64,000 nucleotides of DNA from a phage: assembly GCA_013585095.1 (NCBI GenBank), contig GCA_013585095.1_3039.1; one strand, 5' to 3'. A model generated the notes under the pieces. That model ran no database searches. It was not told the origin of the DNA and saw only the letters and a program-made list of their open reading frames with translations. The position numbers were made by a program, and so were the translations under genes. Shown here piece after piece: positions 1 through 16,108 of the stretch; position 1 is the stretch's first letter; every line of letters begins with the position of its first letter.

Positions 1-39
1 TGGGCGTATTGTTAGTATTCCAATTGCAGGGACTTTCCG

Positions 40-1359
40 ATGACATTTGATGATTTGACAGAAGGCCAGAAAAATGCCTTTAACATCGTTATGAGGGCTA
101 TTAAAGAAAAGAAACATCATGTAACTATTAATGGACCTGCTGGTACTGGTAAGACTACTCTTACAAAATTCATCATTGAAGCTTTAATATCTACGGGTGA
201 AACTGGTATTATTTTAGCAGCTCCTACTCATGCAGCTAAAAAGATTCTTTCAAAACTGTCGGGGAAAGAAGCGAGTACTATTCACAGTATTCTTAAAATT
301 AACCCAGTTACGTATGAAGAAAACGTTCTTTTTGAACAAAAAGAAGTACCAGATTTAGCTAAATGTAGGGTATTAATCTGCGACGAAGTGTCAATGTATG
401 ATAGAAAGCTCTTCAAAATTTTGCTTTCAACTATCCCACCGTGGTGTACTATAATTGGAATAGGCGATAATAAGCAAATTAGACCTGTTGACCCAGGAGA
501 AAATACTGCTTATATCAGTCCATTCTTTACACACAAAGATTTTTATCAGTGTGAACTTACTGAAGTTAAACGCAGTAATGCTCCTATTATTGATGTAGCT
601 ACTGATGTTCGCAACGGTAAGTGGATTTATGATAAAGTTGTTGACGGGCATGGAGTACGTGGATTTACTGGTGATACCGCTTTACGCGATTTTATGGTAA
701 ATTATTTTTCAATCGTAAAATCATTAGATGATTTGTTTGAAAATCGCGTAATGGCATTTACGAATAAATCTGTTGACAAGTTAAATAGCATTATTCGTAA
801 AAAGATTTTTGAAACTGATAAAGATTTTATTGTTGGTGAAATTATTGTAATGCAGGAACCATTAATTAAAACATATAAAATTGATGGAAAGCCTGTGTCA
901 GAAATTATTTTTAATAACGGACAATTAGTTCGTATTATAGAAGCAGAGTATACATCAACGTTTGTTAAAGCTCGTGGTGTTCCTGGAGAATACTTAATTC
1001 GTCATTGGGATTTAACAGTAGAAACTTATGGCGATGATGAATATTATCGTGAAAAGATTAAAATAATTTCATCTGATGAAGAGTTATATAAGTTTAACCT
1101 GTTTTTAGGTAAAACGGCAGAAACTTATAAAAATTGGAATAAAGGCGGAAAGGTTCCGTGGAGTGATTTTTGGGATGCTAAATCACAGTTTAGTAAAGTG
1201 AAAGCACTTCCTGCATCAACATTCCATAAAGCTCAGGGTATGTCTGTAGACCGTGCTTTCATTTATACGCCTTGTATTCATTATGCAGATGCTGAACTAG
1301 CTCAGCAGCTTCTTTATGTTGGTGTAACACGTGGTCGTTATGATGTGTTTTATGTGTGA
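40..1359 (+). CDS. dda: Dda DNA helicase (SF1)
   Basis: 439 aa; Walker A GPAGTGKTT; N-terminus matches remembered T4 Dda; ATG at 40. Confidence 0.93.
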   Translation: MTFDDLTEGQKNAFNIVMRAIKEKKHHVTINGPAGTGKTTLTKFIIEALISTGETGIILAAPTHAAKKILSKLSGKEASTIHSILKINPVTYEENVLFEQKEVPDLAKCRVLICDEVSMYDRKLFKILLSTIPPWCTIIGIGDNKQIRPVDPGENTAYISPFFTHKDFYQCELTEVKRSNAPIIDVATDVRNGKWIYDKVVDGHGVRGFTGDTALRDFMVNYFSIVKSLDDLFENRVMAFTNKSVDKLNSIIRKKIFETDKDFIVGEIIVMQEPLIKTYKIDGKPVSEIIFNNGQLVRIIEAEYTSTFVKARGVPGEYLIRHWDLTVETYGDDEYYREKIKIISSDEELYKFNLFLGKTAETYKNWNKGGKVPWSDFWDAKSQFSKVKALPASTFHKAQGMSVDRAFIYTPCIHYADAELAQQLLYVGVTRGRYDVFYV

Positions 1360-1365
1360 GGCTAT

Positions 1366-1626
1366 ATGATTAACATCAATTCAAAATATTTAAATCGTCT
1401 AATAGATGGTATAAGGAAGCATACTAATAAGCAAGATAATCTCGATGTTATGGTAACAGGAGCTGAGCTCCTTCATAAGCTTTATCTTATAAGTGATACT
1501 ATATTAGCAATTAAACGAATTGAAAAACAATCATATCACAGTAATACAGATACGGTAATTACACTAGATGAAAGTGTCTGTAAATTACTAATTAAATTTG
1601 AGGAAGCTATTCGTGGAAATAACTAA
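1366..1626 (+). CDS. hypothetical small protein (dexA.2 position)
   Basis: ATG start 4 nt after dda stop; 86 aa ORF. Confidence 0.5.
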   Translation: MININSKYLNRLIDGIRKHTNKQDNLDVMVTGAELLHKLYLISDTILAIKRIEKQSYHSNTDTVITLDESVCKLLIKFEEAIRGNN

Positions 1627-1858
1627 AGATCAGTTTTATCTTCTTCAGGATAAAGTTAGCGAAATTTATGAATTAGCTTATAGTAAAAATCGTAGAAATG
1701 TAAAAATTGAATCTGGAAAGTTAATGCTTCAATTAGAAGAAATTGAACGAGATTTAATTGCGTTAGAATTCTTTTGTGGTGAAGTGAAAACTGTCACAAT
1801 CTGTGATTATGTTTTAGGTGAAATTAGCCATCTTTATGAGGCGATTATTAATGATTGA
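1613..1858 (+). CDS. hypothetical small protein; start uncertain (GTG 1613 after GAGGAA)
   Basis: track ORF begins at TTG 1598; C-terminal motif V-x-I-x-DY-x-x-G-x-I shared with next ORF. Confidence 0.4.
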   Translation: MEITKDQFYLLQDKVSEIYELAYSKNRRNVKIESGKLMLQLEEIERDLIALEFFCGEVKTVTICDYVLGEISHLYEAIIND

Positions 1859-2093
1859 ATTAAGTTGGTACCAGTTTAAATCTCTTATGACAAATGTTAA
1901 AGCTGTCATTCAAGAAAATCCAGGACCTGATAATGTTACTATTCGCGAAAAAGCTTCAAAGATAGTATACAGTCTTGAAGAGATACAAAAAGACATTGAA
2001 TCTATGGCAAAATTTATTGATGAGCCTATTAATAAAGTTTATATTCAAGACTATACTGTAGGTCAAATTCGTGATTTAGCGAGGAAAATTTAA
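1851..2093 (+). CDS. hypothetical small protein, paralog of preceding ORF
   Basis: first ATG in frame with RBS; track start is GTG 1818; shared C-terminal motif. Confidence 0.4.
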   Translation: MIELSWYQFKSLMTNVKAVIQENPGPDNVTIREKASKIVYSLEEIQKDIESMAKFIDEPINKVYIQDYTVGQIRDLARKI

Positions 2094-2776
2094 TGTTTGA
2101 TTTTATTATAGATTTTGAAACAATGGGAAGCGGTGAAAAAGCAGCTGTTATTGATTTGGCTGTAATTGCTTTTGACCCTAACCCAGAAGTAGTTGAAACA
2201 TTTGATGAATTAGTTTCACGTGGCATTAAAATCAAATTTGATTTAAAAAGCCAAAAAGGACATCGTCTTTTTACTAAAAGCACTATCGAATGGTGGAAAA
2301 ATCAATCTCCTGAAGCTCGAAAAAATATTGCACCATCCGATGAAGATGTAAGCACTATCGACGGTATTGTAAAATTTAATGATTACATCAATGCACATAA
2401 TATCGATCCTTGGAAATCTCAAGGCTGGTGCCGTGGAATGTCGTTTGATTTTCCAATTTTAGTCGATCTCATTCGTGATATTCAACGTCTTAATGGTGTT
2501 TCTGAGAATGAGCTTGACACATTTAAGTTAGAACCATGTAAATTCTGGAATCAGCGTGATATTCGTACCAGAATTGAAGCACTTCTGCTTGTTCGTGATA
2601 TGACAACATGTCCTCTTCCAAAGGGAACCTTAGATGGATTCGTTGCGCATGATTCTATTCATGACTGTGCGAAAGACATCCTGATGATGAAGTATGCTTT
2701 GCGATACGCTATGGGTCTTGAAGATGCTCCGTCAGAGGAAGAGTGCGATCCTCTGTCTCTTCCAACAAAACGATAA
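2093..2776 (+). CDS. dexA: exonuclease A (DEDD-type 3'-5' exonuclease)
   Basis: 227 aa (T4 DexA size); IIDFETMG exo motif; position after dda. Confidence 0.8.
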   Translation: MFDFIIDFETMGSGEKAAVIDLAVIAFDPNPEVVETFDELVSRGIKIKFDLKSQKGHRLFTKSTIEWWKNQSPEARKNIAPSDEDVSTIDGIVKFNDYINAHNIDPWKSQGWCRGMSFDFPILVDLIRDIQRLNGVSENELDTFKLEPCKFWNQRDIRTRIEALLLVRDMTTCPLPKGTLDGFVAHDSIHDCAKDILMMKYALRYAMGLEDAPSEEECDPLSLPTKR

Positions 2777-2782
2777 AAAGTT

Positions 2783-2812
2783 GTTTACTTCCTCGGTTAG
2801 TTGTGGTATTAT
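2783..2812 (+). promoter_or_regulatory. T4-type early promoter (-35 GTTTAC, -10 TATTAT)
   Basis: gtttacttcctcggttagttgtggtattat, 18-nt spacer. Confidence 0.55.
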
Positions 2813-2839
2813 AACACCATAGCTACTGAGGATAATAAA

Positions 2840-3343
2840 ATGAAAATTTATCGTGTTGAATCATCATTTAGTATTCTTAATTATGAAGATGCTATAACAA
2901 TACGTCGAGATCTTTGTGTTCAAATAACGCCATACAGGAGTATAATGGATTCATGGAGCGAAGAGTGGTTATTACACGTAGGTTATGACAGACCTAATTT
3001 TATGCATCATAGTAATGATAATAAAAGAATTCCTCTTCCGCACGAAGACAAACTATTAGTTAAAAATGCTAATATAGCAATTAATACTAATTTTGAGAAA
3101 GAAGAATATGTAGGCGTAGATCACTATATTCCAGGATGGTTTATAGCTCTTTATCATTTTGCTTTTGCTAGTGAATATGATATGATGAGATGGTTCACAC
3201 GAGAAGAGCGTGAAGAATTAGCTTCTAAAGGATTTTATCTTGCTGTATACGAAGTACCTGAAGATAAAGTTATCATTGGTGGGCATCAAGTAATGTTCCG
3301 TAAATCCCATGCCGAATTAAAAGGCTTTATTACCTTAGATTAA
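2840..3343 (+). CDS. hypothetical protein
   Basis: ATG after GAGGA; track start TTG 2801 lies inside an upstream early promoter. Confidence 0.5.
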   Translation: MKIYRVESSFSILNYEDAITIRRDLCVQITPYRSIMDSWSEEWLLHVGYDRPNFMHHSNDNKRIPLPHEDKLLVKNANIAINTNFEKEEYVGVDHYIPGWFIALYHFAFASEYDMMRWFTREEREELASKGFYLAVYEVPEDKVIIGGHQVMFRKSHAELKGFITLD

Positions 3344-3353
3344 AGAGAAAATT

Positions 3354-3791
3354 ATGATTAAAAATAATGCTGTTTATCAATTGAAAAAATTTGATGAAAT
3401 TAAGAATTTTTCGGTACTGTCTAATACAGCTCATAATAAGTTTTGTGAACTTCTTGGTTTAACTGGCGGATATCCTTTTACTGTTATTAGTGTTAATAGC
3501 GGAATTCTTATCGGTATGATGTATATTGAAATTAGAAACTATTATGGAATGGTATCACCGCTTATTATTTATGAAAAAGATTTTAGTCTATTGACAGAAA
3601 TTGAAAAACCTGAAGATCCAACTGATCTACTGTGTAAGGCAGTTTATATTCGTCGTCCATTCGCGAATCCTGTGGGTGGATGGGTGACTGATCAGTGGAT
3701 TGAAGATGGTGTTGAACTTCTGAACGTAGTTCATGCTGGAGAGTACTCTGTAGTTCCTCGCAGCGCAGTGATTAATGTTCGTGTAAGCTAG
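3354..3791 (+). CDS. hypothetical protein; C-terminal domain paralogous to next ORF
   Basis: C-terminus TDQWIEDGVELLNVVHAGEYSVVP resembles TDQWVEDGVKLYNAVFLGTYKVIP of 3865..4356. Confidence 0.5.
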   Translation: MIKNNAVYQLKKFDEIKNFSVLSNTAHNKFCELLGLTGGYPFTVISVNSGILIGMMYIEIRNYYGMVSPLIIYEKDFSLLTEIEKPEDPTDLLCKAVYIRRPFANPVGGWVTDQWIEDGVELLNVVHAGEYSVVPRSAVINVRVS

Positions 3792-3820
3792 TTTACAAAC
3801 TCTTGGGACCAGAGTATAAT
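3791..3820 (+). promoter_or_regulatory. T4-type early promoter (-35 GTTTAC, -10 TATAAT inside an inverted repeat)
   Basis: gtttacaaactcttgggaccagagtataat followed by ggtcc. Confidence 0.6.
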
Positions 3821-3864
3821 GGTCCTGCGGAGTATAAAATCTTTTTAACAAGTGAGAGATAACT

Positions 3865-4356
3865 ATGATTATTAATATTGGTGAATTAGCTCGTGTATCT
3901 GATAAATCCCGCTCTAAAGCAGCAGGAAAATTGGTCGAAGTTGTAAGCATTCAGCTTAAACACGGTGTTAAAGATGAAGATTCTGAAGTAAAAGTGCGTA
4001 TCATTCCTAAAGATGGAAAGTCTAAAACTCAGTTTGGCTATGTTCGTGCGAAATTTCTTGAATCTGCGTTTTTGAAAGCTGTTCCTGCTAAAGGAATTGA
4101 AACGATTGATACTTCGCATGTAGGTGTAGACTTTAAGTGGAAACTCGGTCAGGCTATTAAGTTCGTTGCTCCTTATGAGTTTGAATTTACTGAAGGTGAG
4201 GAAGGTGTTGTTAACCGTACTCGCGCTATGTGTGCATACATTACTGATCAATGGGTAGAAGATGGCGTTAAGTTATACAACGCGGTATTTTTAGGAACAT
4301 ACAAAGTCATTCCTGAAAGTTGGATTAAACACTACAGCAAAGCTCGCTATGCATAA
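3865..4356 (+). CDS. MotB-like protein (by size and position; not sequence-verified)
   Basis: 163 aa (T4 MotB 162 aa); basic N-terminus; own early promoter upstream. Confidence 0.4.
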   Translation: MIINIGELARVSDKSRSKAAGKLVEVVSIQLKHGVKDEDSEVKVRIIPKDGKSKTQFGYVRAKFLESAFLKAVPAKGIETIDTSHVGVDFKWKLGQAIKFVAPYEFEFTEGEEGVVNRTRAMCAYITDQWVEDGVKLYNAVFLGTYKVIPESWIKHYSKARYA

Positions 4357-4453
4357 AGTTTAAAATTTTTTCATAAAACTATATACATCAGTAGTTGATT
4401 ATGGTACTATATCAATATCAACTACTGATACAGAAAACAACTTGGAGAATAAA

Positions 4454-4723
4454 ATGGAAAATTTAATTATCATCGAGCAATCTTTCAATGATTATGGTAT
4501 GGCTTACGGTTATCGTGCGATAATGGAAGATTCTCGTGGATGTGTTATCGATATTGCTGAATGTAAAGATTTACTGCAGCTTTTGAAGATTGTTCGCAAA
4601 AATTGGGATTGTGAAAACATTAAAGCTCGTGTTGTAACGGAAGAAGAAACTGTTTTTCATGATGTAAAATTCGCTAAAGGTGCTGCTACTCTTCTGAAAC
4701 GCATCGCTCCACTGTTCAATTAA
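4454..4723 (+). CDS. hypothetical protein
   Basis: ATG after GGAGAA; track start is TTG 4442. Confidence 0.45.
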   Translation: MENLIIIEQSFNDYGMAYGYRAIMEDSRGCVIDIAECKDLLQLLKIVRKNWDCENIKARVVTEEETVFHDVKFAKGAATLLKRIAPLFN

Positions 4724-4736
4724 TGAGGAAATTGTA

Positions 4737-4952
4737 ATGAAACGTAAAATTGTTCAGAATTGCACTAATGACGAATTTGAAGATGTATTATTCGATCCAG
4801 ATTTGGTAGTAGTTCAAAAAGAACATACCGTTAAGTTTACTCACTTGACTTCGGTTTATGTGTATGAAAAGGTTGGTGATAAACAACCAATTTACGGTGT
4901 ATTTCGTGAAATTACTGAAGATGGCACAACTTACTGGAAGGAAACTTATTAA
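4737..4952 (+). CDS. hypothetical protein (cef-region, 71 aa)
   Basis: ATG start; RBS GAGGAA upstream. Confidence 0.45.
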
Positions 4953-5377
4953 TGGCTATTAGATTTGAAGTTAATAAATGGTATCAATTTAAAAATAAAC
5001 AAGCTCAAGAAAATTTTATTAAAGATCATACTGATAACGGAATCTATGCACGCCGTTTAGGTATGCATCCTTTTAAAATTTTAGATGTTGACCATCTTGG
5101 TCGTCCTACTAAAATTGTGACATCTACTGGCACAATTGGATATGCAACACATGGTGATATCCTTGACGAAAACTTTATCTGGCTCTCTACTAACGAAGCC
5201 GAGTTCTTTGATGAAGTGGAAAATCCATATCAGGCAGCTGAAGAGCAAGAGCAGGAAGAGAAAGAGCAAGAACAAATAGAAGATTTCACAGAATTCCCAG
5301 TCATGAAAGTTACTATTGAAAATAATGAACAGGCATGGTCCTTGTATCAGATGTTGAAAGCTCACTTTAAGGAATAA
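4952..5377 (+). CDS. hypothetical acidic protein (goF position, 141 aa)
   Basis: ATG overlaps previous stop; [12 protein letters not shown] acidic tract. Confidence 0.45.
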
Positions 5378-5379
5378 TT

Positions 5380-5556
5380 ATGCCAATGTATGATTATAAA
5401 TGCCAATCCGAAGATTGCGGGCATGAATATGAAAAAATTAAAAAGATTTCTGAACGAGAAAATGATGTTTGCCCTAAATGTCATCGTCTGTCTACTCGTC
5501 GGCCTTCTGCTCCTAAGCATGTGAATGGCGGATTTTACGACTTACTTAAAGGATAA
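5380..5556 (+). CDS. small zinc-ribbon protein (CxxC..CxxC), not in ORF track
   Basis: 58 aa MPMYDYKCQSEDCGHEYEKIKKISERENDVCPKCHRLSTRRPS...; below the track's 60-aa cutoff. Confidence 0.45.
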   Translation: MPMYDYKCQSEDCGHEYEKIKKISERENDVCPKCHRLSTRRPSAPKHVNGGFYDLLKG

Positions 5557-5558
5557 TT

Positions 5559-5930
5559 ATGTTTAAAATCGGTAAGAAATATCGTATTCGCGAAGGCGAA
5601 GAAAAGAAATATCTAATGTCTGCTATTTATAGGAATGGTTCTATTAATGCTGTAATATCTACAAGCGAATTTATCGTTGAAGATATGAAAGGTCATAATG
5701 TTACGATGATTAGTACAGCGTCTGGAAATAACGGAAAAATTCTTCACAGTTTTCAGAGTAATGTTCTAATTTATGCTGAAGAATTTGACTTCTTCGAAGA
5801 AGTCACAGAAGATTTTGATTTTGAATGCACTATTACCATGAAATCTGGCGACCCTCTTTCCTTTACAGTTAAAGATGAAAGAAGTCGCTTGAGAATTATT
5901 AGTCTTCTTCAAGCTATTAAATTTAAGTGA
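5559..5930 (+). CDS. hypothetical protein
   Basis: 123 aa ORF, ATG start overlapping previous stop region. Confidence 0.5.
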   Translation: MFKIGKKYRIREGEEKKYLMSAIYRNGSINAVISTSEFIVEDMKGHNVTMISTASGNNGKILHSFQSNVLIYAEEFDFFEEVTEDFDFECTITMKSGDPLSFTVKDERSRLRIISLLQAIKFK

Positions 5931-5935
5931 AAATT

Positions 5936-6196
5936 ATGAAATATATTAATCGTTCTATCGCAGCATTAGTATTAGCAGTATCTTTAGTAGGATGTACTGA
6001 TGCTGATAATGCAACTAAAATTTTATCATCAAGTGGTTTTACGAATATTGAAATCACTGGATATAACTGGTTCGGTTGCTCTGAAAATGATTTCCAACAT
6101 ACTGGATTTCGTGCTATTGGACCTACCGGGCAGAAAGTAGAAGGAACAGTATGTTCTGGGCTGTTCTTTAAGGATTCAACTATTCGTTTTAAATAA
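5936..6196 (+). CDS. putative lipoprotein
   Basis: MKYINRSIAALVLAVSLVGC signal peptide with lipobox LVGC; hairpin follows. Confidence 0.5.
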   Translation: MKYINRSIAALVLAVSLVGCTDADNATKILSSSGFTNIEITGYNWFGCSENDFQHTGFRAIGPTGQKVEGTVCSGLFFKDSTIRFK

Positions 6197-6220
6197 AAGG
6201 CCTTCGGGCCTTTAGCTTTA
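6197..6220 (+). terminator. UUCG-tetraloop hairpin, weak intrinsic terminator
   Basis: aaggccTTCGggcctt followed by tttagcttta. Confidence 0.45.
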
Positions 6221-6265
6221 TGATTACTGGAGTATAATATTCCCGAAACCAAACGAGGATAAGTG

Positions 6266-8083
6266 ATGATTAAGAATGAAATTAAAATTCTGAGCGATAT
6301 TGAACATATCAAAAAGCGTAGCGGCATGTACATTGGCTCTTCAGCTAATGAAATGCATGAGCGCTTTCTGTTTGGTAAATGGGAAAGTGTTCAGTATGTA
6401 CCTGGTCTTGTTAAGCTTATTGATGAAATTATCGATAACTCAGTAGATGAAGGTATTCGTACTAAGTTTAAATTCGCAAATAAAATTAATGTTACTATCA
6501 AAAACAATCAAGTAACAGTTGAAGATAACGGTCGTGGTATTCCACAAGCGATGGTTAAAACACCTACCGGTGAAGAAATTCCTGGTCCAGTTGCTGCTTG
6601 GACTATTCCAAAAGCGGGTGGTAACTTCGGTGATGATAAAGAACGCGTCACCGGTGGTATGAATGGTGTTGGTTCTAGTTTGACAAACATTTTTTCTGTG
6701 ATGTTTGTCGGTGAAACTGGCGACGGTCAAAATAATATTGTAGTTCGTTGTTCAAATGGCATGGAAAATAAATCCTGGGAAGATATTCCTGGAAAATGGA
6801 AAGGAACCCGTGTTACTTTCATTCCTGATTTTATGTCATTTGAAACTAATGAGCTGTCCCAAGTTTATCTTGACATTACACTGGATCGTCTCCAGACACT
6901 TGCTGTTGTTTATCCTGATATTCAATTTACCTTTAATGGTAAAAAGGTTCAGGGCAATTTTAAGAAATATGCACGACAGTATGATGAACATGCTATTGTT
7001 CAAGAACAAGAAAATTGTTCTATTGCGGTTGGTCGTTCACCGGATGGTTTTCGTCAGTTAACATACGTCAATAACATTCACACTAAGAATGGTGGCCATC
7101 ATATTGACTGTGTTATGGATGATATTTGTGAAGACCTCATTCCACAAATCAAGCGCAAGTTCAAAATTGATGTAACTAAAGCGCGTGTCAAAGAATGTTT
7201 GACTATCGTTATGTTTGTTCGTGATATGAAAAACATGCGATTTGATTCTCAGACTAAAGAGCGTTTGACTTCTCCATTTGGTGAAATTCGTAGTCATATT
7301 CAGCTTGATGCTAAAAAGATTTCACGCGCTATTCTAAATAATGAAGCTATTTTGATGCCAATTATTGAAGCTGCCTTGGCCCGTAAATTAGCAGCAGAAA
7401 AAGCAGCAGAAACTAAAGCAGCTAAAAAGGCTTCTAAAGCTAAGGTTCATAAACATATCAAAGCGAATCTTTGCGGTAAAGATGCTGATACTACTCTTTT
7501 CTTGACTGAGGGTGATTCTGCTATCGGATATCTTATTGATGTTCGTGATAAAGAACTTCATGGTGGTTATCCATTACGTGGTAAAGTTCTTAACAGCTGG
7601 GGTATGTCATATGCTGATATGCTTAAAAACAAAGAACTGTTTGATATTTGCGCAATCACTGGATTAGTTCTTGGTGAAAAAGCTGAAAACTTGAATTATC
7701 ATAATATTGCTATTATGACCGATGCTGACCATGATGGTTTAGGAAGCATTTATCCTTCTCTGCTCGGATTTTTTAGTAATTGGCCAGAATTGTTTGAGCA
7801 AGGACGAATTCGCTTCGTCAAAACTCCTGTAATCATCGCTCAGGTCGGTAAAAAACAAGAATGGTTTTATACAGTCGCTGAATATGAGAGTGCCAAAGAT
7901 GCTCTACCTAAACATAGCATCCGTTATATTAAAGGACTTGGCTCTTTGGAAAAATCTGAATATCGTGAGATGATTCAAAATCCAGTATATGATGTTGTTA
8001 AACTTCCTGAGAATTGGAAAGAGCTTTTTGAAATGCTCATGGGAGATAATGCTGACCTTCGTAAAGAATGGATGAGCCAGTAG
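6266..8083 (+). CDS. 39: topoisomerase II large subunit (GyrB-like ATPase + Toprim), unsplit
   Basis: 605 aa; DNSVDEG (GHKL), LTEGDSA and MTDADHDG (Toprim); no gene-60 split. Confidence 0.9.
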   Translation: MIKNEIKILSDIEHIKKRSGMYIGSSANEMHERFLFGKWESVQYVPGLVKLIDEIIDNSVDEGIRTKFKFANKINVTIKNNQVTVEDNGRGIPQAMVKTPTGEEIPGPVAAWTIPKAGGNFGDDKERVTGGMNGVGSSLTNIFSVMFVGETGDGQNNIVVRCSNGMENKSWEDIPGKWKGTRVTFIPDFMSFETNELSQVYLDITLDRLQTLAVVYPDIQFTFNGKKVQGNFKKYARQYDEHAIVQEQENCSIAVGRSPDGFRQLTYVNNIHTKNGGHHIDCVMDDICEDLIPQIKRKFKIDVTKARVKECLTIVMFVRDMKNMRFDSQTKERLTSPFGEIRSHIQLDAKKISRAILNNEAILMPIIEAALARKLAAEKAAETKAAKKASKAKVHKHIKANLCGKDADTTLFLTEGDSAIGYLIDVRDKELHGGYPLRGKVLNSWGMSYADMLKNKELFDICAITGLVLGEKAENLNYHNIAIMTDADHDGLGSIYPSLLGFFSNWPELFEQGRIRFVKTPVIIAQVGKKQEWFYTVAEYESAKDALPKHSIRYIKGLGSLEKSEYREMIQNPVYDVVKLPENWKELFEMLMGDNADLRKEWMSQ

Positions 8084-8112
8084 TTTACTTTACCACAAGG
8101 ATGTGGTATAAT
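8083..8112 (+). promoter_or_regulatory. T4-type early promoter
   Basis: gtttactttaccacaaggatgtggtataat. Confidence 0.6.
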
Positions 8113-8137
8113 TAATTGGGCAAATGAGGATATTGAA

Positions 8138-8341
8138 ATGAAATCATATAGAGTAAATTTAGAACTTTTTGATAAAGCAGTTCATCGAGAATATAGAATC
8201 ATTCAACGCTTTTTCGATATGGGAGAAGCCGAAGAATTTAAAAACCGCTTTAAAGATATTAGAGATAAAATTCAATCCGACACTGCAACTAAAGATGAAC
8301 TACTAGAAGTTGCTGAAGTTATTAAGCGTAATATGAATTAA
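8138..8341 (+). CDS. hypothetical protein (rIIA.1 position)
   Basis: 67 aa, ATG with GAGGA RBS, own early promoter. Confidence 0.5.
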
Positions 8342-8351
8342 TGAGGAAATT

Positions 8352-10529
8352 ATGATTATCACCACTGAAAAAGAAACAATTCTTGGCAATGGTTCTAAAT
8401 CAAAAGCATTTAGCATCGCAGCAAATCCTAAAGTATTTAAAATTCTATCATCTGATTTGTATACAAACAAGATTCGCGCAGTGGTCCGTGAATTGATTAC
8501 CAACATGATTGATGCCCATGCTCTCAATGGAAATCCTGAAAAATTTATCATTCAAGTTCCTGGACGTTTAGATCCACGATTTGTTTGCCGAGATTTTGGT
8601 CCCGGTATGAGTGATTTTGATATTCAGGGTGATGATAATTCTCCCGGTCTGTATAATTCATACTTCAGTTCATCTAAGGCTGAATCTAACGATTTCATTG
8701 GCGGATTTGGTTTAGGTTCTAAATCTCCGTTTAGTTATACTGATACATTTAGTATTACTTCGTATCATAAAGGTGAAATTCGTGGCTATGTAGCTTACAT
8801 GGATGGTGATGGTCCACAGATTAAACCTACATTCGTAAAAGAAATGGGTCCAGATGATAAAACTGGTATTGAAATCGTAGTTCCAGTTGAAGAAAAAGAC
8901 TTTAGAAACTTTGCTTATGAAGTTTCTTATATCATGCGACCGTTCAAAGATTTGGCTATCATTAATGGTCTTGACCGTGAAATTGATTATTTTCCGGATT
9001 TTGATGATTATTACGGTGTAAATCCAGAAAGATACTGGCCTGATCGTGGTGGATTATATGCTATCTATGGCGGTATTGTTTATCCTATCGATGGTGTTAT
9101 TAGAGACCGTAATTGGCTAAGCATTCGCAATGAAGTGAATTACATTAAGTTTCCAATGGGTTCACTTGATATTGCTCCATCTCGCGAGGCTCTTTCACTT
9201 GATGATCGTACTCGTAAAAATATTATTGAGCGAGTTAAAGAACTCAGTGAGAAAGCATTTAATGAAGATGTAAAACGATTTAAAGAATCTACATCTCCTC
9301 GTCACACATATCGTGAATTGATGAAGATGGGGTATTCTGCTCGAGATTATATGATTAGTAATTCGGTCAAATTCACGACTAAAAATCTGTCATATAAAAA
9401 GATGCAGAGCATGTTTGAACCTGACAGTAAGTTATGTAATGCAGGCGTGGTGTATGAAGTAAATCTTGACCCTCGACTGAAGCGCATTAAGCAAAGTCAT
9501 GAAACATCAGCCGTTGCATCAAGTTATCGTCTGTTTGGTATTAATACAACAAAAATTAATATCGTTATTGATAATATTAAAAATCGTGTTAATATTGTCC
9601 GTGGATTAGCGCATGCGTTAGATGATAGTGAATTTAATAACACTTTGAATATTCATCATAACGAACGCCTTTTGTTTATTAACCCAGAAGTAGAATCGCA
9701 GATTGATTTACTCCCTGATATTATGGCGATGTTTGAAAGTGATGAAGTTAACATTCATTATTTGTCAGAAATTGAAGCTTTAGTTAAAAGCTATATTCCA
9801 AAGGTAGTTAAAAGTAAAGCTCCTCGTCCTAAAGCTGCTACAGCATTTAAATTTGAAATTAAAGATGGACGATGGGAAAAAGAGGAACTATTTACACTTA
9901 CGTCAGAAGCAGATGAAATTACTGGTTATGTAGCGTATATGCATCGTTCTGATATTTTCTCTATGGATGGTACTACATCGCTTTGTCATCCATCTATGAA
10001 TATTTTGATTCGTATGGCTAATCTTATTGGCATTAATGAATTTTATGTTATTCGTCCGCTTTTGCAGAAAAAGGTAAAAGAGCTTGGTCAGTGCCAATGT
10101 ATTTTTGAAGCTTTACGTGATTTATATGTAGATGCTTTTGATGATGTAGATTATGATAAGTATGTAGGTTATTCAAGTTCAGCTCAACGATATATTGATA
10201 AAATTATCAAGTATCCTGAACTAGATTTTATGATGAAGTACTTCAGTACAGATGAAGTTTCTGAAGAATATACACGACTTGGTAATATGGTTAGTTCATT
10301 ACGCGGTGTGTATTTCAATGGTGGAAAAGATACCATCGGTCATGATATCTGGACAGTAACTAATCTCTTTGATGAATTATCACGTAATGCTTCAAAAAAT
10401 AGTGATAAAATGGTTGCTGAGTTTACCAAGAAATTCCGTATTGTTTCCGACTTCATCGGTTATCGCAACTCTTTAAGTGATGATGAAGTTTCCCAAATCG
10501 CTAAAACTATGAAGGCCCTTGCGGCCTAA
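8352..10529 (+). CDS. rIIA: rIIA protein (GHKL-type ATPase fold)
   Basis: 725 aa as in T4; ELITNMIDA and DFGPGMS Bergerat-fold motifs. Confidence 0.9.
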
Positions 10530-10540
10530 TAAGGAAAATT

Positions 10541-11479
10541 ATGTACAATATTAAATGCCTGACCAAAAACGAACAAGCTGAAATTGTTAAATTGTATTCA
10601 AGCGGTAATTACACCCAACAGGAATTGGCTGATTGGCAAGGTGTATCGGTTGACACAATTCGTCGTGTTTTGAAAAATGCTGAAGAAGCTAAACGCTCTA
10701 AAGTTACTATTAGCGGTGACATTACGGTTAAAGTTAATAGCGATACAGCTATTGCTCCAGTTACTAAATCTGACATTATTTGGAATGCATCTAAAAAATT
10801 CATTTCAATTACTGTTGACGGTGTAACTTATAACGCAACTCCTAATACTCATTCAAACTTCCAGGAAATTCTTAATCTGCTTGTAGCAGATAAGTTGGAA
10901 GAAGCGGTACAAAAAATTAATGTTCGTCGCGCTGTTGAAAAATATATTTCCGGCGATGTTCGAATTGAAGGCGGAAGCTTGTTCTATCAAAATATCGAAT
11001 TACGGTCTGGTTTAGTTGATCGTATTCTCGATTCGATGGAAAAAGGTGAAAACTTTGAATTTTATTTTCCGTTCTTGGAAAATCTGCTGGAAAACCCAAG
11101 CCAGAAAGCGGTATCTCGACTCTTTGATTTCTTGGTAGCAAACGATATTGAAATTACAGAAGATGGTTACTTCTATGCTTGGAAAGTAGTTCGTGACAAC
11201 TACTTTGACTGTCACTCAAACACCTTTGATAACAGTCCTGGTAAAGTAGTTAAAATGCCGCGTACTCGTGTGAATGACGATGATACACAAACTTGTTCTC
11301 GTGGTCTGCATGTGTGTTCTAAATCTTATATTCGTCACTTTGGCAGTTCAACCAGCCGAGTTGTAAAAGTTAAAGTACATCCACGTGATGTAGTATCAAT
11401 TCCGATTGATTACAACGATGCTAAAATGCGTACCTGCCAATACGAAGTAGTTGAAGACGTTACTGAACAATTTAAATAA
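10541..11479 (+). CDS. rIIB: rIIB protein
   Basis: 312 aa as in T4, directly downstream of rIIA; hairpin follows. Confidence 0.85.
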   Translation: MYNIKCLTKNEQAEIVKLYSSGNYTQQELADWQGVSVDTIRRVLKNAEEAKRSKVTISGDITVKVNSDTAIAPVTKSDIIWNASKKFISITVDGVTYNATPNTHSNFQEILNLLVADKLEEAVQKINVRRAVEKYISGDVRIEGGSLFYQNIELRSGLVDRILDSMEKGENFEFYFPFLENLLENPSQKAVSRLFDFLVANDIEITEDGYFYAWKVVRDNYFDCHSNTFDNSPGKVVKMPRTRVNDDDTQTCSRGLHVCSKSYIRHFGSSTSRVVKVKVHPRDVVSIPIDYNDAKMRTCQYEVVEDVTEQFK

Positions 11480-11496
11480 GGGCTTCGGCCCTTATC
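11479..11496 (+). terminator. UUCG-tetraloop hairpin after rIIB
   Basis: agggcTTCGgccct; weak U-tract. Confidence 0.4.
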
Positions 11497-11511
11497 ATAT
11501 TAAGGAAAATT

Positions 11512-11706
11512 ATGTTAGGTTATCAAGCACGAGTAAAAGAAGAATACGATCAATTAATGCTCAAAATTAATGCACTGAGCAAATTTTTAGAAAGCACAAA
11601 GTTTCTAACGGTTAGTGCAGTTGAGCAAGAACTGCTGCTTTCACAGTTCATCTCAATGAAATCTTATGCTGAGTGTCTAGAGAAAAGAATCGCACAATTC
11701 AAATAA
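11512..11706 (+). CDS. hypothetical protein
   Basis: 64 aa between two UUCG hairpins. Confidence 0.45.
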   Translation: MLGYQARVKEEYDQLMLKINALSKFLESTKFLTVSAVEQELLLSQFISMKSYAECLEKRIAQFK

Positions 11707-11710
11707 AATA

Positions 11711-11732
11711 AGGGCTTCGGCCCTTTTGTTTT
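11711..11732 (+). terminator. intrinsic terminator
   Basis: agggcTTCGgccct followed by tttgtttt. Confidence 0.55.
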
Positions 11733-11769
11733 AAGAGAAATTATGATTCCGACATAAAGGAAAGTTTAA

Positions 11770-12327
11770 ATGCAGAAAACGAATCCGGGTTTGCAGAGAC
11801 TATTTCAGATTCCGACATTTACTCTATCGAACAGCGATTTAACCAATGAAATGAAGGTCAAAATTGCTGATACAGCAAGATACTCTTTAAAACAAAACCC
11901 GAACCAGGATAAGGCAGAAGTTATCGAAAGATGTCGTATCGCTGTGTATGCTGAGTATGTTGTAGCAGATTGGTTAAGCGGGTATGTTAATAAAGGTCAA
12001 GAAGATGTCGATGATCCGTACACATATGCATGGGATGTTTTAGCGCATCCAAAATATTGCGGGCTTCGTGTAGAAGTCAAAACACATCAAACTGACTCGC
12101 GTTGGATTTCGGTAACAACGGGATGCAGCGGAGAGTATCCATATGGTTCTGGAATAAATTTAGGGCCCATTCTAAATCATCAAGTCGCTGACTGTATAAT
12201 TATATTCAACACTAAAGAAATTCATCCAGGTGTCATCCAGTACACTCCGAAGTTCATCGGTGACAGAGAAGACCTTCGTAAGGTTGTAAGAAAAAGCAAC
12301 TACAACGGATGGTATCTTTCCATTTAA
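11770..12327 (+). CDS. endonuclease IV-like (denB position and size)
   Basis: 185 aa equals T4 DenB length; location after rIIB. Confidence 0.5.
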   Translation: MQKTNPGLQRLFQIPTFTLSNSDLTNEMKVKIADTARYSLKQNPNQDKAEVIERCRIAVYAEYVVADWLSGYVNKGQEDVDDPYTYAWDVLAHPKYCGLRVEVKTHQTDSRWISVTTGCSGEYPYGSGINLGPILNHQVADCIIIFNTKEIHPGVIQYTPKFIGDREDLRKVVRKSNYNGWYLSI

Positions 12328-12345
12328 AAATTTTTTCACAAAACG

Positions 12346-12375
12346 GTTTACATACCACAAGGACCGTGGTACTAT
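12346..12375 (+). promoter_or_regulatory. T4-type early promoter with A/T-rich upstream element
   Basis: aaaattttttcacaaaacGGTTTACataccacaaggaccgtggTACTAT. Confidence 0.55.
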
Positions 12376-12403
12376 TACCCTATCAACTACGGAGGAGCGG
12401 AAA

Positions 12404-12667
12404 ATGAAATTTAAATTTTATTACGCTAAACATAAAATAACTGATGAGTTTGTGTCAGTTGAATATTCTAGCGATGATGAAGGTATGATTTATACTCGCT
12501 TAGGATTATCGCATTGGGAGTCTGATACGCCTTATTTTTCAACTCCCGAAGAAATTACACGCTTAGTTAATGGTCATATGAATGACCACTGGAATGTAAT
12601 TCTTTCAGATAGTCTTAAAGCGGCTATTAATAGTAATGAAATGAAAATCGCTGAGATTGAGTTATGA
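12404..12667 (+). CDS. hypothetical protein
   Basis: 87 aa; early promoter and GGAGGAG RBS upstream. Confidence 0.45.
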   Translation: MKFKFYYAKHKITDEFVSVEYSSDDEGMIYTRLGLSHWESDTPYFSTPEEITRLVNGHMNDHWNVILSDSLKAAINSNEMKIAEIEL

Positions 12668-12853
12668 GTTCACTATGGTGGTGTTTCGTTTGGTTAATTA
12701 GTATTCCATTAATTTGTTTAACATTTACTTTTGTAATGAGATTATTATGAAAATTTTGAATTCTGTACTTATTGCTTGCGCGTGGTGGGTTGCACAGGTT
12801 TCAGCGGTAGTAGTTGGTATTCACATTTATTACGAATATTTTTAAAAAAGTTG

Positions 12854-12882
12854 TTTACAAGACTGTTCTTCCGTGGTACTAT
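12854..12882 (+). promoter_or_regulatory. T4-type early promoter
   Basis: gtttacaagactgttcttccgtggtactat. Confidence 0.55.
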
Positions 12883-12910
12883 TACTCTATCAACTACGGA
12901 GGAACAGAAA

Positions 12911-13024
12911 ATGAAAAAGATTATTAAAGCTATATGGAATGTAGTTATAATATTAATAGTTTTGAGTATATTCCCAATCGTTTTAATGATTGATGTATTA
13001 AACGCTTACTTTGGATTTATGTGA
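12911..13024 (+). CDS. small hydrophobic membrane peptide (37 aa)
   Basis: MKKIIKAIWNVVIILIVLSIFPIVLMIDV...; RBS GGAGGAA; promoter upstream. Confidence 0.4.
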   Translation: MKKIIKAIWNVVIILIVLSIFPIVLMIDVLNAYFGFM

Positions 13025-13031
13025 GGAAAAT

Positions 13032-13229
13032 ATGAAGCGTAAACGCAGTGCTTTTACATTTATTGAATGGTTTTTCGATAATATTTTTCCGGCTTTATTC
13101 ATTTTCATGCTGATTTTTGCCTTAGGTTCAGTTGTAGTTGGAATCTATTTGATGGCGGTAGTCGGAATGGATATTCATCAAAATGGTTTAAAATCCGTAG
13201 TTGAAACAATTTGGAATGGTGTAAAATAA
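13032..13229 (+). CDS. small membrane protein (65 aa)
   Basis: ATG after GAGGAAAA; hydrophobic core FPALFIFMLIFALGSVVVGIYLMAVVG. Confidence 0.4.
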   Translation: MKRKRSAFTFIEWFFDNIFPALFIFMLIFALGSVVVGIYLMAVVGMDIHQNGLKSVVETIWNGVK

Positions 13230-13344
13230 TGAATTTACTAAACATTTGGTTTTATATTCTTATGTTTTACATTGGCGCAAATTTTCCATATTGGATGGGA
13301 TGGTCAACAACTGCATTTGGATTTTATACTCCTTGAGGTGAATT

Positions 13345-13560
13345 ATGAAAATCTTTAAAGATGTAAAAGTTGGTGAAATTTTCTGTTTAGATAACGGTGA
13401 TCAGTTAATTCGTATTTCACCTCTTAAGAGCACTAGCGAGAAACCGACAGTTAATGCTACTTTAGCAAATAATAGTAATGAACGTTTCTGTATTGAAAAT
13501 GATACTGAAACTTACACCGTAGAAGAATTCTGGGAATTGAGCGTCGACTGCGACGAGTAA
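13345..13560 (+). CDS. hypothetical protein
   Basis: 71 aa, ATG with GAGGTG RBS. Confidence 0.45.
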   Translation: MKIFKDVKVGEIFCLDNGDQLIRISPLKSTSEKPTVNATLANNSNERFCIENDTETYTVEEFWELSVDCDE

Positions 13561-13620
13561 TTTAATGGCCGTGTGTATTCATGCGGCCTTGGAGTAGAAA
13601 ATAATTTAGAGGAAATTAAT

Positions 13621-14079
13621 ATGAAATATATGACTGTTACTGATCTGAACAACGCAGGTGCTACTGTTATTGGTACAATCAAGGGTGGTGAATGGTTTTT
13701 GGGAACTCCGCATAAAGATATTTTATCTAAACCTGGATTTTACTTTTTAGTAAGTAAATTAGATGGTCGTCTATTTAGTAATCCATGCGTGTCTGCACGA
13801 TTTTATGTAGGTAATCAGCGTTCTAAGCAAGGATTCAGTGCAGTTCTAAGTCATATTCGTCAACGTCGGTCTCAGCTTGCACGTACTATTGCAAATAACA
13901 ATGTTCCATACACAGTATTTTATCTGCCTGCTTCTAAGATGAAACCTCTGACGACAGGATTTGGTAAAGGTCAGTTAGCTTTGGCGTTTACTCGTAATCA
14001 TCATTCTGAGTATCAAACACTTGAAGAAATGAACCGTATGTTGGCTGATAACTTTAAATTCGTTTTGCAGGCATATTAA
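13621..14079 (+). CDS. ndd: nucleoid disruption protein
   Basis: 152 aa from ATG 13621 (GAGGAAA RBS); matches remembered T4 Ndd ([13 protein letters not shown]...). Confidence 0.75.
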
Positions 14080-14159
14080 TGAGTAATTTCCACAACGAAC
14101 ACGTGATGCAGTTCTATCGTAACAATCTTAAAACCAAAGGCGTCTTCGGACGCCAGTGA
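14079..14159 (+). CDS. stp: Stp peptide (activator of host PrrC anticodon nuclease / inhibitor of EcoprrI)
   Basis: 26 aa [26 protein letters not shown], identical to remembered T4 Stp; not in ORF track. Confidence 0.85.
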
Positions 14160-14166
14160 GGAAAAT

Positions 14167-14322
14167 ATGAAATTTGTTCACGGTATAGCCTTTTTCTGTT
14201 GGTTCTTTTTATGCATCGGAACAGTAATAACTGGAGAAACTTCAGTATTTTTGCAAGCATCAGCTCAGGGCGTATTAGCGATTTTATCATTATTCGCGTA
14301 CATTGGTTCTAAAAATAGTTGA
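14167..14322 (+). CDS. small hydrophobic membrane peptide (51 aa)
   Basis: MKFVHGIAFFCWFFLCIG...; paralog of next ORF (SVFxQAxAQG motif). Confidence 0.4.
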   Translation: MKFVHGIAFFCWFFLCIGTVITGETSVFLQASAQGVLAILSLFAYIGSKNS

Positions 14323-14332
14323 GGAGAATATT

Positions 14333-14491
14333 ATGAATATCGCAAAATTATTAGGAGTTATTTCATTTATTTGTTGGATAGTAGCATGTGTTTTAACTAT
14401 CTGTATTGATGCTAGCAGTGTGTTTTCGCAAGCTTTAGCTCAGGGTATGTGTGCATATTTAACATTTGTGTTGTTATCTACTAATGATTAA
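14333..14491 (+). CDS. small hydrophobic membrane peptide (52 aa)
   Basis: ATG after GAGGAG; track start 14303 is upstream extension. Confidence 0.4.
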   Translation: MNIAKLLGVISFICWIVACVLTICIDASSVFSQALAQGMCAYLTFVLLSTND

Positions 14492-14624
14492 GAAAATCTT
14501 GGGCTATTCATTAGCCCTTGCTATTTTATTAATAGCACTATATTATGGAGTAATGTTTGGATTAATTCAAGTCGTGCTTTTCATTTCTGATGTTATTATG
14601 GCACTACATTCACTAGTATGGTAA
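14484..14624 (+). CDS. small membrane peptide (ac-like position just upstream of gene 52)
   Basis: 46 aa MIKKILGYSLALAILLIALYYGVMFGLIQVV...; not in ORF track. Confidence 0.35.
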   Translation: MIKKILGYSLALAILLIALYYGVMFGLIQVVLFISDVIMALHSLVW

Positions 14625-14628
14625 ATTT

Positions 14629-15957
14629 ATGCAACTGAATAATCGCGATTTAAAAAGTATCATTGATAATGAAGCATTGGCTTATGCTATGTACACGGTT
14701 GAAAATCGTGCTATTCCAAATATGATTGATGGATTTAAGCCAGTTCAACGATTTGTTATTGCTCGAGCTCTTGATTTGGCACGAGGAAATAAAGATAAGT
14801 TTCACAAACTCGCTTCTATTGCAGGTGGTGTAGCGGACCTTGGATATCACCATGGTGAAAACTCTGCACAAGATGCGGGGGCTTTGATGGCTAACACTTG
14901 GAATAATAACTTTCCTTTATTAGATGGTCAAGGAAACTTCGGTTCTCGTACTGTCCAAAAGGCAGCAGCTAGTCGTTATATTTTTGCTCGTGTAAGTAAA
15001 AATTTCTATAACGTATATAAAGATACTGAATATGCTCCAGTACATCAAGATAAAGAACACATTCCGCCTGCTTTCTATTTGCCTATTATTCCTACTGTTC
15101 TTCTTAATGGCGTTTCCGGTATTGCAACTGGTTATGCAACTTACATTCTTCCTCATAGTGTTTCTTCTGTTAAGAAAGCTGTACTGCAAGCTCTTCAAGG
15201 AAAGAAAGTAACTAAACCGAAGGTAGAATTCCCAGAATTTCGTGGTGAAGTCGTTGAAATTGATGGGCAATATGAAATTCGTGGAACATATAAGTTTACT
15301 TCACGAACTCAAATGCATATCACTGAGATTCCGTATAAGTATGATCGTGAAACTTATGTGAGTAAAATCTTAGACCCACTTGAAGATAAAGGCTTCATTA
15401 CATGGGATGATGCTTGTGGTGAGCATGGTTTTGGATTCAAAGTTAAATTCCGTAAAGAATATTCTTTGAGCGATAATGAAGAAGAACGCCATGCAAAAAT
15501 TATGAAAGACTTCGGGTTGATTGAGCGTCGTTCTCAGAATATTACCGTCATTAATGAGAAAGGAAAACTGCAAGTTTACGATAACGTAGTTGATTTAATT
15601 AAAGACTTTGTTGAAGTTCGTAAAACTTATGTCCAAAAACGAATTGATAACAAAATCAAAGAAACTGAGTCAGCTTTTCGTTTAGCCTTTGCCAAGGCAC
15701 ATTTCATTAAGAAAGTAATTTCAGGTGAAATTGTTGTACAAGGTAAAACTCGCAAAGAACTGACCGAAGAACTTTCTAAAATTGATATGTATTCTTCTTA
15801 TGTTGATAAACTAGTTGGAATGAATATTTTTCATATGGCTTCCGACGAAGCAAAGAAACTTGCTGAAGAAGCTAAAGCTAAAAAAGAAGAAAACGAATAT
15901 TGGAAAACTACTGATGTAGTTACAGAATACACCAAAGATTTAGAGGAAATCAAATGA
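14629..15957 (+). CDS. 52: topoisomerase II medium subunit (GyrA-like)
   Basis: 442 aa as in T4; AIPNMIDGFKPVQRFV and AASRY active-site Tyr region. Confidence 0.9.
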   Translation: MQLNNRDLKSIIDNEALAYAMYTVENRAIPNMIDGFKPVQRFVIARALDLARGNKDKFHKLASIAGGVADLGYHHGENSAQDAGALMANTWNNNFPLLDGQGNFGSRTVQKAAASRYIFARVSKNFYNVYKDTEYAPVHQDKEHIPPAFYLPIIPTVLLNGVSGIATGYATYILPHSVSSVKKAVLQALQGKKVTKPKVEFPEFRGEVVEIDGQYEIRGTYKFTSRTQMHITEIPYKYDRETYVSKILDPLEDKGFITWDDACGEHGFGFKVKFRKEYSLSDNEEERHAKIMKDFGLIERRSQNITVINEKGKLQVYDNVVDLIKDFVEVRKTYVQKRIDNKIKETESAFRLAFAKAHFIKKVISGEIVVQGKTRKELTEELSKIDMYSSYVDKLVGMNIFHMASDEAKKLAEEAKAKKEENEYWKTTDVVTEYTKDLEEIK

Positions 15958-16103: not shown

Positions 16104-16108
16104 TTTTA

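Follow-up and report, generated by a model that had tools for sequence, protein, structure and literature searches.

Stem-loops spanning the -10 region of early promoters in a T4-like phage and their possible action on read-through transcripts

Early promoters of the window and their stem-loops

The stretch of DNA analysed here in full (64,000 nt from contig GCA_013585095.1_3039.1 of the NCBI GenBank assembly GCA_013585095.1, hereafter the window) corresponds to the early region of a Tequatrovirus (T4-like) phage, from dda to gene 27, with about 97% identity at most to, for example, Shigella phage ESh33. It carries a series of early promoters in which the spacer between the -35 and -10 hexamers pairs with sequence at or beyond the -10, and these stem-loops are the subject of this work. 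Comparison with the annotated T4 record identified the + strand as the early-transcribed strand. The genes run in the order dda, dexA, motB.2, motB.1, motB, cef, goF, 39, rIIA, rIIB, 52, motA and asiA, next the tail-fibre genes on the opposite strand, then rnh, 32, frd, td, nrdA/B, rnlA, alc, pseT, cd, 31 and rIII, and finally the 30.x genes, 30, alt and the baseplate genes. The T4 records NC_000866 and AF158101 contain no promoter features. The pattern GTTTAC-N16-19-TAnnAT had 14 matches in the window, all on the + strand (1.24 expected). Relaxing the -10 to TAnnnT brought in two copies of one cassette (42782 and 58088), and a GTTTAC match at 29607, within gene 34, was left out, giving 15 credible early promoters (GTTTAC-N17/18-TAnnnT). 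All have an A/T-rich tract upstream and a Shine-Dalgarno sequence (SD) with an ATG 25–50 nt downstream, and the stop codon of the upstream open reading frame (ORF) abuts or overlaps the -35, so that each cassette sits between two ORFs.

The pairing exists in the sequence, is selected, behaves as + strand RNA and is absent where a terminator blocks read-through. In the window, the longest perfect inverted repeat between the spacer and the 30 nt past the -10 had a mean length of 5.93 bp over the 15 promoters, versus 4.57 bp when spacers and downstream halves were swapped among them (P<0.0002) and 4.64 bp at 9,115 random window positions. Repeats of at least 6 bp were found at nine promoters, versus 2.56 expected from the swaps and 2.8 from random positions (P=0.0005), and repeats of at least 8 bp at three (0.28 expected from random positions; P=0.0025). 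When the RNA from the -35 through the ATG was folded and compared with dinucleotide shuffles, nine of the 15 cassettes had z scores of -2.1 to -5.8, and the other six (8083, 12346, 16159, 18624, 30135 and 33435) had no fold signal (z about 0 to -1.6); the promoter at 30135 has a 6-bp AT-rich repeat only. A preliminary description of this DNA had reported short perfect inverted repeats flanking or overlapping the -10 at a minimum of six early promoters. Every repeat that it named was found where it had been placed, the count of sites rises to nine with the addition of 2783 and 12853, and the repeats exceed all three controls. However, the stems are longer than described, since on RNA folding most of them continue through G·U and A-U pairing at the extended -10, and it had escaped notice that in about half of the cassettes, including those at 49140, 42782 and 58088, the 3' arm is the SD.

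The nine cassettes, which precede motB.2, motB, a small ORF downstream of denB, frd.1, alc, cd.2, 30.8, 30.7 and alt.-3, fall into two classes (Table 1). In both, the 5' arm occupies spacer sequence right past the -35. In class A, the 3' arm begins 0–3 nt past the -10 hexamer and extends across the start-site region, with the -10 in the loop. In class B, the 3' arm contains the SD and ends no more than 10 nt from the ATG; the SD is sequestered in the predicted helix in this class only.

Table 1. Stem-loop cassettes at early promoters of the window, with two promoters lacking a strong hairpin for contrast. Positions are those of the window; folds run from the -35 through the ATG.
Downstream gene	Class	Extent	Strand	5' arm	3' arm	Promoter elements	Repeat, SD, ATG and other features	Fold (kcal/mol)	z
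motB.2	B	2783-2842	+	2790-2807	2816-2832		SD GAGGA in 3' arm; ATG 2840	-23.8	-4.5
motB	A	3791-3867	+	3799-3811	3820-3833	-35 3791-3796; -10 3815-3820 (loop)	core 3806-3810 GGACC / 3821-3825 GGTCC; ATG 3865	-21.5	-3.4
small ORF (12911) downstream of denB	B	12853-12913	+	12863-12877	12893-12907		3' arm over SD GGAGG	-22.7	-5.6
frd.1	A	34171-34231	+	34180-34190	34195-34205 (overlaps -10)	-10 34195-34200	core 34181-34186 GGCTAT / 34198-34203 ATAGCC	-14.7	-3.6
alc	B	42782-42842	+	42788-42806 (spacer)	42821-42838	-10 42806-42811	SD GAGGA in 3' arm; ATG 42840	-24.4	-5.8
cd.2 (T4 Pe133295)	A	46107-46169	+	46114-46129	46134-46149	-10 46131-46136	GGTAGAG 46118-46124 / CTCTACC 46139-46145, part of a perfect 11-bp repeat 46114-46124 / 46139-46149, TTTTGGTAGAG/CTCTACCAAAA	-19.8	-5.2
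30.8	B (weak)	49125-49184	+	49138-49146	49167-49175		repeat 49139-49146 TCCTTTGT / 49167-49174 ACAAAGGA; 3' arm over SD AAGGAG	-12.1	-2.1
30.7	A	49517-49585	+	49526-49533 GGTACAGG	49549-49556 CCTGTACC	-10 49540-49545		-19.4	-4.8
alt.-3	B	58088-58151	+	58096-58112	58127-58143		SD in 3' arm	-23.0	-4.4
motA	contrast	16108-16188	+			GTTTAC 16159	terminator 16108-16129 and T-run directly upstream; no spanning hairpin		0.0
frd.3	contrast	33380-33464	+			GTTTAC 33435	weak hairpin at most		-1.6

Compensatory change across T4-like phages

The window was compared with T4, JS09 and Shf125875 (Mosigvirus), JS98 and Bp7 (Dhakavirus), Moon (Moonvirus), PKO111 (Jiaodavirus), CBH8 (Winklervirus), STML-198 (Gelderlandvirus), AS6 (Karamvirus) and one more Klebsiella phage. 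The cassettes of the window and of these phages other than AS6 and the additional Klebsiella phage yielded a non-redundant set of 57, from seven genera (Tequatrovirus, Mosigvirus, Dhakavirus, Moonvirus, Jiaodavirus, Winklervirus and Gelderlandvirus). Further promoter regions, preceding alc, frd.1 and 30.7 or following cd.3, came from viral metagenome contigs; these loci were gathered with protein alignments, single-protein queries yielding 5–9 near-identical loci. Among the 57 cassettes, the duplex between a spacer and its own downstream half had a mean energy of -10.60 kcal/mol, versus -6.90 kcal/mol for swapped partners (z -11.7; 0 of 20,000 permutations), and this advantage was present within every phage tested. 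The own partner ranked best of 57 in 13 cassettes, where one is expected; those at 2783 (own duplex -23.1 kcal/mol) and 12853 in the window were both first.

The alc promoter had at least 12 different helices between spacer and SD among 30 distinct cassettes from several genera (for example CTCCTCAT/ATGAGGAG, CCTCATCAG/CTGATGAGG, CTCCATTTGGTT/AACCAAATGGAG, CCTCATTTCGTT/AACGAAATGAGG and CCTCTCATTTT/AAAATGAGAGG). Covariation was counted on a 17-pair helix in 11 in-register alc sequences. In this alignment, 94.6% of the cells were paired, versus 39–47% with the partner slid; four pairs were altered on both sides, accounting for 12 cells versus 4.0±1.4 in shuffles, and the covariation score of 0.203 (versus 0.096) was matched by none of 500 shuffles. 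Column-based covariation failed on alignments of mixed genera, because the arms shift register between genera. At three loci from IMG/VR contigs (L038, L039 and L067), the region upstream of alc has a GC-rich terminator, aaaaaggggtgtacaagccccttcttt, in place of the early promoter, followed by a different promoter-like sequence, and this arrangement is a third solution at the alc junction.

The frd.1 orthologues have at least nine different helices, including GGGTA/TACCC in T4, GATAGGGTA/TACCCTATC in Moon, GGAGCTAT/ATAGCTCC in PKO111 and GGGTTAT/ATAACCC in STML-198. Three helices were found at cd.2: GGTAGAG/CTCTACC in T4, GGTGGAG/CTCTACC, with a G·U pair, in JS09, and GGTAGGACT/AGTCCTACC in JS98 and Bp7. 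For 30.7, 24 of 25 distinct cassettes have a hairpin and the remaining one a weak hairpin, with five class A and two class B helices, the class differing between genera. Conservation at orthologous promoters, which the preliminary description had required, was found: the predicted helix is retained at alc, 30.7, frd.1 and cd.2 despite sequence change, with compensatory changes across genera. The motB-type promoter has GGGACC/GGTCC in the window and T4, and GGAGC/GCTCC, changed on both sides, in JS09, JS98, Bp7 and Shf125875, where it occurs at another locus. Both motB-type and cd.2-type cassettes were found at other loci in other phages, and the cd.2-type hairpin of JS98 was seen in the alc promoters of other contigs. 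Within the window, a 55-nt unit from GTTTAC to GAGGA is duplicated at alc (42782-42836) and alt.-3 (58088-58142), with 54 of 55 positions identical. The boundaries of the copy coincide with those of the hairpin. The duplication is also present in T4, and JS98 has different promoters at the two sites.

The phage RB49 had five promoters matching a strict TTGACA pattern in 44 kb and, in this small sample, no pairing between spacer and downstream half (own -3.8, swapped -5.3); one of its promoters has a hairpin of a G-run and a C-run entirely inside the spacer. No Rfam family matched the window.

Strand bias, start sites and upstream terminators

Helices were defined by Watson-Crick pairs alone, and isolated internal mismatches were then counted. 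There were 10 G·T or T·G mismatches versus three A·C or C·A (P=0.046), in a small sample partly related by descent. An excess of G·T over A·C would be expected from pairing of + strand RNA, but not from symmetry of the DNA duplex or structures on both strands.

The T4 record names the cd.2 promoter Pe133295, and the coordinate in this single record name is the A within the 3' arm (CTCT-A-CC). In both classes, the predicted +1, about 7 nt past the -10, falls in the loop or in the 3' arm. On the basis of this name and of the standard spacing from -10 to +1, we infer that transcription starts inside the hairpin. RNA from the promoter itself could therefore not form the hairpin, and only RNA entering from upstream could do so.

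Three promoters of the window come right after textbook terminators: motA, frd.3, which follows the gene 32 terminator (GGGGACC-CTAGA-GGTCCCC and a T-run), and 30.8, preceded by GAGGACTCC-TTCG-GGAGTCCTT and a T-run. The rnh promoter follows a gene on the other strand. At these four promoters the hairpin is weak or missing, and the eight strongest hairpins of the window are preceded by an ORF without a terminator. This relationship was tested with 67 non-redundant cassettes from 12 phages, divided according to the presence of an intrinsic terminator within 85 nt upstream. Cassettes with an upstream terminator (n=16) had a mean duplex energy of -6.93 kcal/mol, equal to the swap background, versus -12.07 kcal/mol for those without (n=51; Mann-Whitney P=0.008). 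Strong helices were present in one of 16 and 23 of 51 cassettes, respectively (Fisher P=0.0035). The preliminary description had supposed that the repeats fold into hairpins where the next transcription unit begins, on RNA reading through from upstream, and the compensatory changes, the predominance of G·T among mismatches, the predicted position of the start site inside the hairpin and the exclusion by terminators all support this part of it. Processing, attenuation and occlusion, which it put forward as roles, are possibilities only.

The hairpins are not classical intrinsic terminators, since no U-tract follows the 3' arm of any class A or class B hairpin. The terminator scan (positions 1-20000) and the upstream-terminator test likewise detected canonical terminators upstream of some promoters and none of the promoter hairpins. 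They share with intrinsic terminators a stem-loop in nascent RNA between two genes, but have long loops and moderately AT-rich stems, whereas the true terminators of the window are GC-rich, with tetraloops and T-runs.

Proposed function, known elements and further features

Selection for pairing, a mismatch bias of the RNA type, a start site inside the hairpin and the absence of strong hairpins near terminators together point to an element acting on read-through RNA only. We therefore favour, with moderate confidence, the interpretation that the hairpins, as an RNA element confined to read-through transcripts, insulate the early gene that follows them. The T-even phages would thus have built an RNA stem-loop into the compact unit formed by stop codon, early promoter, ribosome site and ATG. 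RNA from the gene's own promoter would have an open leader, and RNA derived from upstream would fold, so that the transcript would be marked by its origin.

For the class B cassettes (motB.2, ORF 12911, alc, 30.8 and alt.-3), the consequence would be masking of the ribosome site on read-through RNA, a prediction that we consider well grounded. RegB cleaves early ribosome sites at GGAG, and RNA structure is known to protect GGAG from this enzyme (PMC3014915), so masking would also shield read-through RNA from RegB. Only RNA started at the gene's own early promoter would then be translated, and cut by RegB at GGAG. Middle promoters lie upstream of alc (PnrdA and PnrdB+) and motB.2 (Pdex.2 and Pdda.1) (PMC2988021). 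As these supply later read-through RNA, the hairpin would restrict Alc and MotB.2 to RNA from their own early promoters. The ribosome sites of frd.1 (34219-34231), 30.8 (49172-49184) and 30.7 (49572-49585) read GGAGAATAAAA(A)TG, which fits the published consensus for strong RegB sites, GGAGRAYARAA.

In the class A cassettes (motB, frd.1, cd.2 and 30.7), a stable stem-loop would separate the ribosome site from the stop codon upstream. The SD is free in this class, so the effect must differ from class B masking; it could be a barrier to decay or processing, steric hindrance of ribosome loading, or attenuation. The switch of the 30.7 promoter between classes argues for a shared role, which can be summed up as keeping the downstream gene insulated from transcripts of upstream origin.

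Several points weigh against this interpretation. Class A leaves the SD free, 5–20 nt downstream of the hairpin, and masking of the ribosome site cannot explain this class. The class switch at 30.7 suggests that the shared function may not be translational at all. The use of the SD as 3' arm could be a matter of convenience, the SD being the sole G-rich block in a short AT-rich leader. Furthermore, the mismatch count is small and some of its helices are related, and the terminator test consists essentially of three genomic positions (after gene 32, before 30.9/30.8 and before motA) repeated across phages. The promoters at 8083, 12346 and 18624 have no upstream terminator, yet they have no hairpin spanning the -10; the first has a 5-bp hairpin inside the spacer and the other two have 4-bp ones only. 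Finally, the translation block, the protection from RegB, the RNA ends and the start sites in the phage of the window are predictions from sequence.

A more specific and more tentative form of the insulation interpretation, possible but in our view doubtful, is that of a general gate in T-even early promoters, in which an anti-SD or other 5' arm in the spacer sorts transcripts by origin, with translation and later RegB inactivation only on own-promoter RNA. Carried on read-through RNA, whether delayed-early or middle, an early gene would stay silent and be protected from RegB; at other junctions, canonical terminators would serve instead. Such a gate would link the shut-off of early proteins (Alc and MotB, for example) to that of the early promoters, and would preserve long transcripts for the middle genes downstream.

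T4 is the reference model for timed phage gene expression, and the hairpins touch on two questions that are partly understood: the shut-off of early protein synthesis, and the way in which dozens of strong tandem promoters work without mutual interference. If they do separate own-promoter from read-through RNA, they would constitute a simple control layer, written in sequence only and conserved in at least eight T4-like genera. This would explain why promoter spacers and leaders, usually deemed free sequence, are conserved and covary. The reuse of T4 early promoter cassettes, or the editing of these intergenic regions in therapeutic phages, would then alter structure unnoticed.

The foremost of the other explanations, although we consider it unlikely, is that the stem-loops are RNA stability or processing elements that guard the upstream 3' end or the downstream 5' end after cutting by RNase E, RNase G or RegB. 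The hairpin immediately follows the upstream stop codon, it is missing where a terminator already provides a 3' stem-loop, and classes A and B switch freely, all of which favour such an element. In bacterial operons, intercistronic hairpins such as the malE-malF REP elements and those of the pap operon act as stabilisers. The window hairpins resemble them in forming a stem-loop just past a stop codon that could block 3'-exonucleases after endonucleolytic cutting; however, the stabilisers are not tied to promoters, whereas the arms described here occupy just those promoter positions that are free of constraint. RegB and RNase E/G process T4 early RNA extensively (PMC3014915), and several cassettes contain the RegB consensus GGAGAATAAAA. 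Nevertheless, RNA ends at the hairpin sites are hypothetical, and the position of the 5' arm upstream of the start site is unexplained by stabilisation, save by a shortage of free space.

An improbable alternative, put forward by the authors who described the promoter-early stem-loop (PeSL) cassettes of T4-type phages (Arbiol et al. 2010, PMC2839356; Comeau et al. 2014, PMC4122927), is that the stem-loops attenuate or terminate transcription by polymerase arriving from upstream, limiting pile-up from tandem early promoters. An RB49 PeSL stem-loop reduced downstream lacZ expression as strongly as the rrnB T1 terminator (PMC2839356), and the mutual exclusion of hairpins and canonical terminators upstream of promoters is expected if one replaces the other. 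Against attenuation, none of the window hairpins has a U-tract, the class B loops are 8–40 nt long, and termination does not need the precise match of the class B arm to the SD. In addition, middle-mode expression in T4 relies on read-through from early units (PMC2988021).

That the repeats act as DNA, either as cruciform or single-strand hairpin sites for recombination, as in the PeSL mini-circle model, or as palindromic sites for a regulator of early promoters, appears very improbable. It is true that the cassettes move, as seen in the alc copy before alt.-3, the motB-type cassettes elsewhere in JS09 and JS98, and the cd.2-type hairpin in other alc promoters, and that recombination between PeSLs was demonstrated for RB49 and phi1 (PMC2839356). 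However, the arm sequences are wholly different between promoters, which leaves no common protein site; loops of 8–40 nt are poorly suited to cruciform extrusion; the tolerance of G·T and rarity of A·C mismatches fit + strand RNA but neither duplex DNA nor both strands; the link with upstream terminators is a property of transcripts; and no inverted-loop variant of cd.2 occurs among 685 phage records. Lastly, an origin by chance in AT-rich sequence, or as a side effect of the promoter consensus, is refuted for the set as a whole by the swap, random-position and shuffle controls and by compensatory change across genera, although repeats of 5–6 bp occur often (5 bp in 45% of swapped pairs and 6 bp in 27% of AT-rich random windows) and the weakest cases (30135, or the 5-bp core of 3791 alone) would not stand singly.

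Hairpins at T4-type early promoters have already been published, as PeSLs, which the preliminary description missed. In phi1 and RB49, the PeSL stem-loop lies most often between the -35 and -10 or overlaps the -10, and was read as a terminator or attenuator and recombination site; the word "translation" is absent from that paper (PMC2839356). The window cassettes likewise pack a sigma-70-type early promoter, AT-rich upstream sequence, a stem-loop, an SD and an ATG between two ORFs, are repeated and mobile, and have hairpins that overlap or bracket the -10, as in one of the five published subclasses; G-T pairs have also been noted in PeSL stems. PeSLs mostly precede small ORFs that are non-essential, in plastic regions, and mark where genes have been shuffled, in agreement with the window cassettes. 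Unlike them, the stem-loops published for the T4/PST pair are just upstream of the promoter (PMC4122927) and do not bracket the -10; they correspond to the window terminators at 16108, ~33385 and ~49075. The spacer anti-SD and the exclusion by terminators are apparently undescribed, although an older account of T4 early-promoter hairpins may exist. A literature search found no accessible data set of T4 3' ends or start sites.

Another close parallel is with the T4 genes e, soc, 49 and I-TevI, in which a hairpin containing an internal promoter silences long transcripts by holding the SD or AUG, and the internal promoter gives a shorter RNA, lacking the 5' strand, that is translated (PMC3014915). 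The geometry predicted for class B is exactly alike. However, the internal promoter is an early one of the sigma-70 type, not a late one, and class A excludes the SD. By analogy, the class B cassettes would work like this late-promoter family without being members of it. A late internal promoter delays expression; with an early one, we predict the reverse, namely expression in the early period only or from the gene's own promoter only.

An invertible -10 switch at cd.2 was also considered and rejected: a query with the inverted loop returned no such variant from the 685 phage records, and the best identity, 92.5%, corresponded to the normal orientation. In the T4 GenBank record, positions 133300-133313 (window 46125-46138), exactly the 14-nt loop between the 11-bp arms of cd.2, had earlier been reported as the inverted complement. 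Since no inverted variant was found, the earlier version probably reflects an error in sequencing or assembly induced by the hairpin.

A different hairpin, located entirely within the spacer, was seen at the rIIA.1 promoter (8093-8106; CCACA-AGGA-TGTGG), where the extended -10 serves as its 3' arm. A 4-bp version is present at the 12346 promoter (12355-12369), and this structure recurs in other phages as CACCA/TGGTG and ACACA/TGTGT. Intra-spacer hairpins of at least 5 bp numbered six, weakly above the 2.1 expected from swapped controls, and the six are possibly of shared descent. Immediately 5' of GTTTAC at three promoters (12327-12345, 16140-16158 and 33416-33434) is a near-identical element, aaaattttttcacaaaacg, which comes after a terminator at 16159 and 33435 and is probably a common module of UP-element and terminator tail.

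Elsewhere in the window, two full-length genes for Alt-type ADP-ribosyltransferases (698 and 685 aa; Pfam ADPrib_exo_Tox) lie in tandem (53931-56027 and 56031-58088); T4 has one alt gene and the remnants alt.-1 and alt.-2, and JS98 has two genes, as in the window. The large subunit of topoisomerase II is encoded by a single ORF of 606 aa (6263-8083), and the T4-style 39/60 split, mobA and the gene 60 translational bypass are absent. The td (35692-36552) and nrdB (39985-41163) genes appear to be intron-free, and an ORF of 213 aa resembling HNH/NUMOD3 homing endonucleases (39347-39988) is found between nrdA and nrdB, at the position of mobE in T4.

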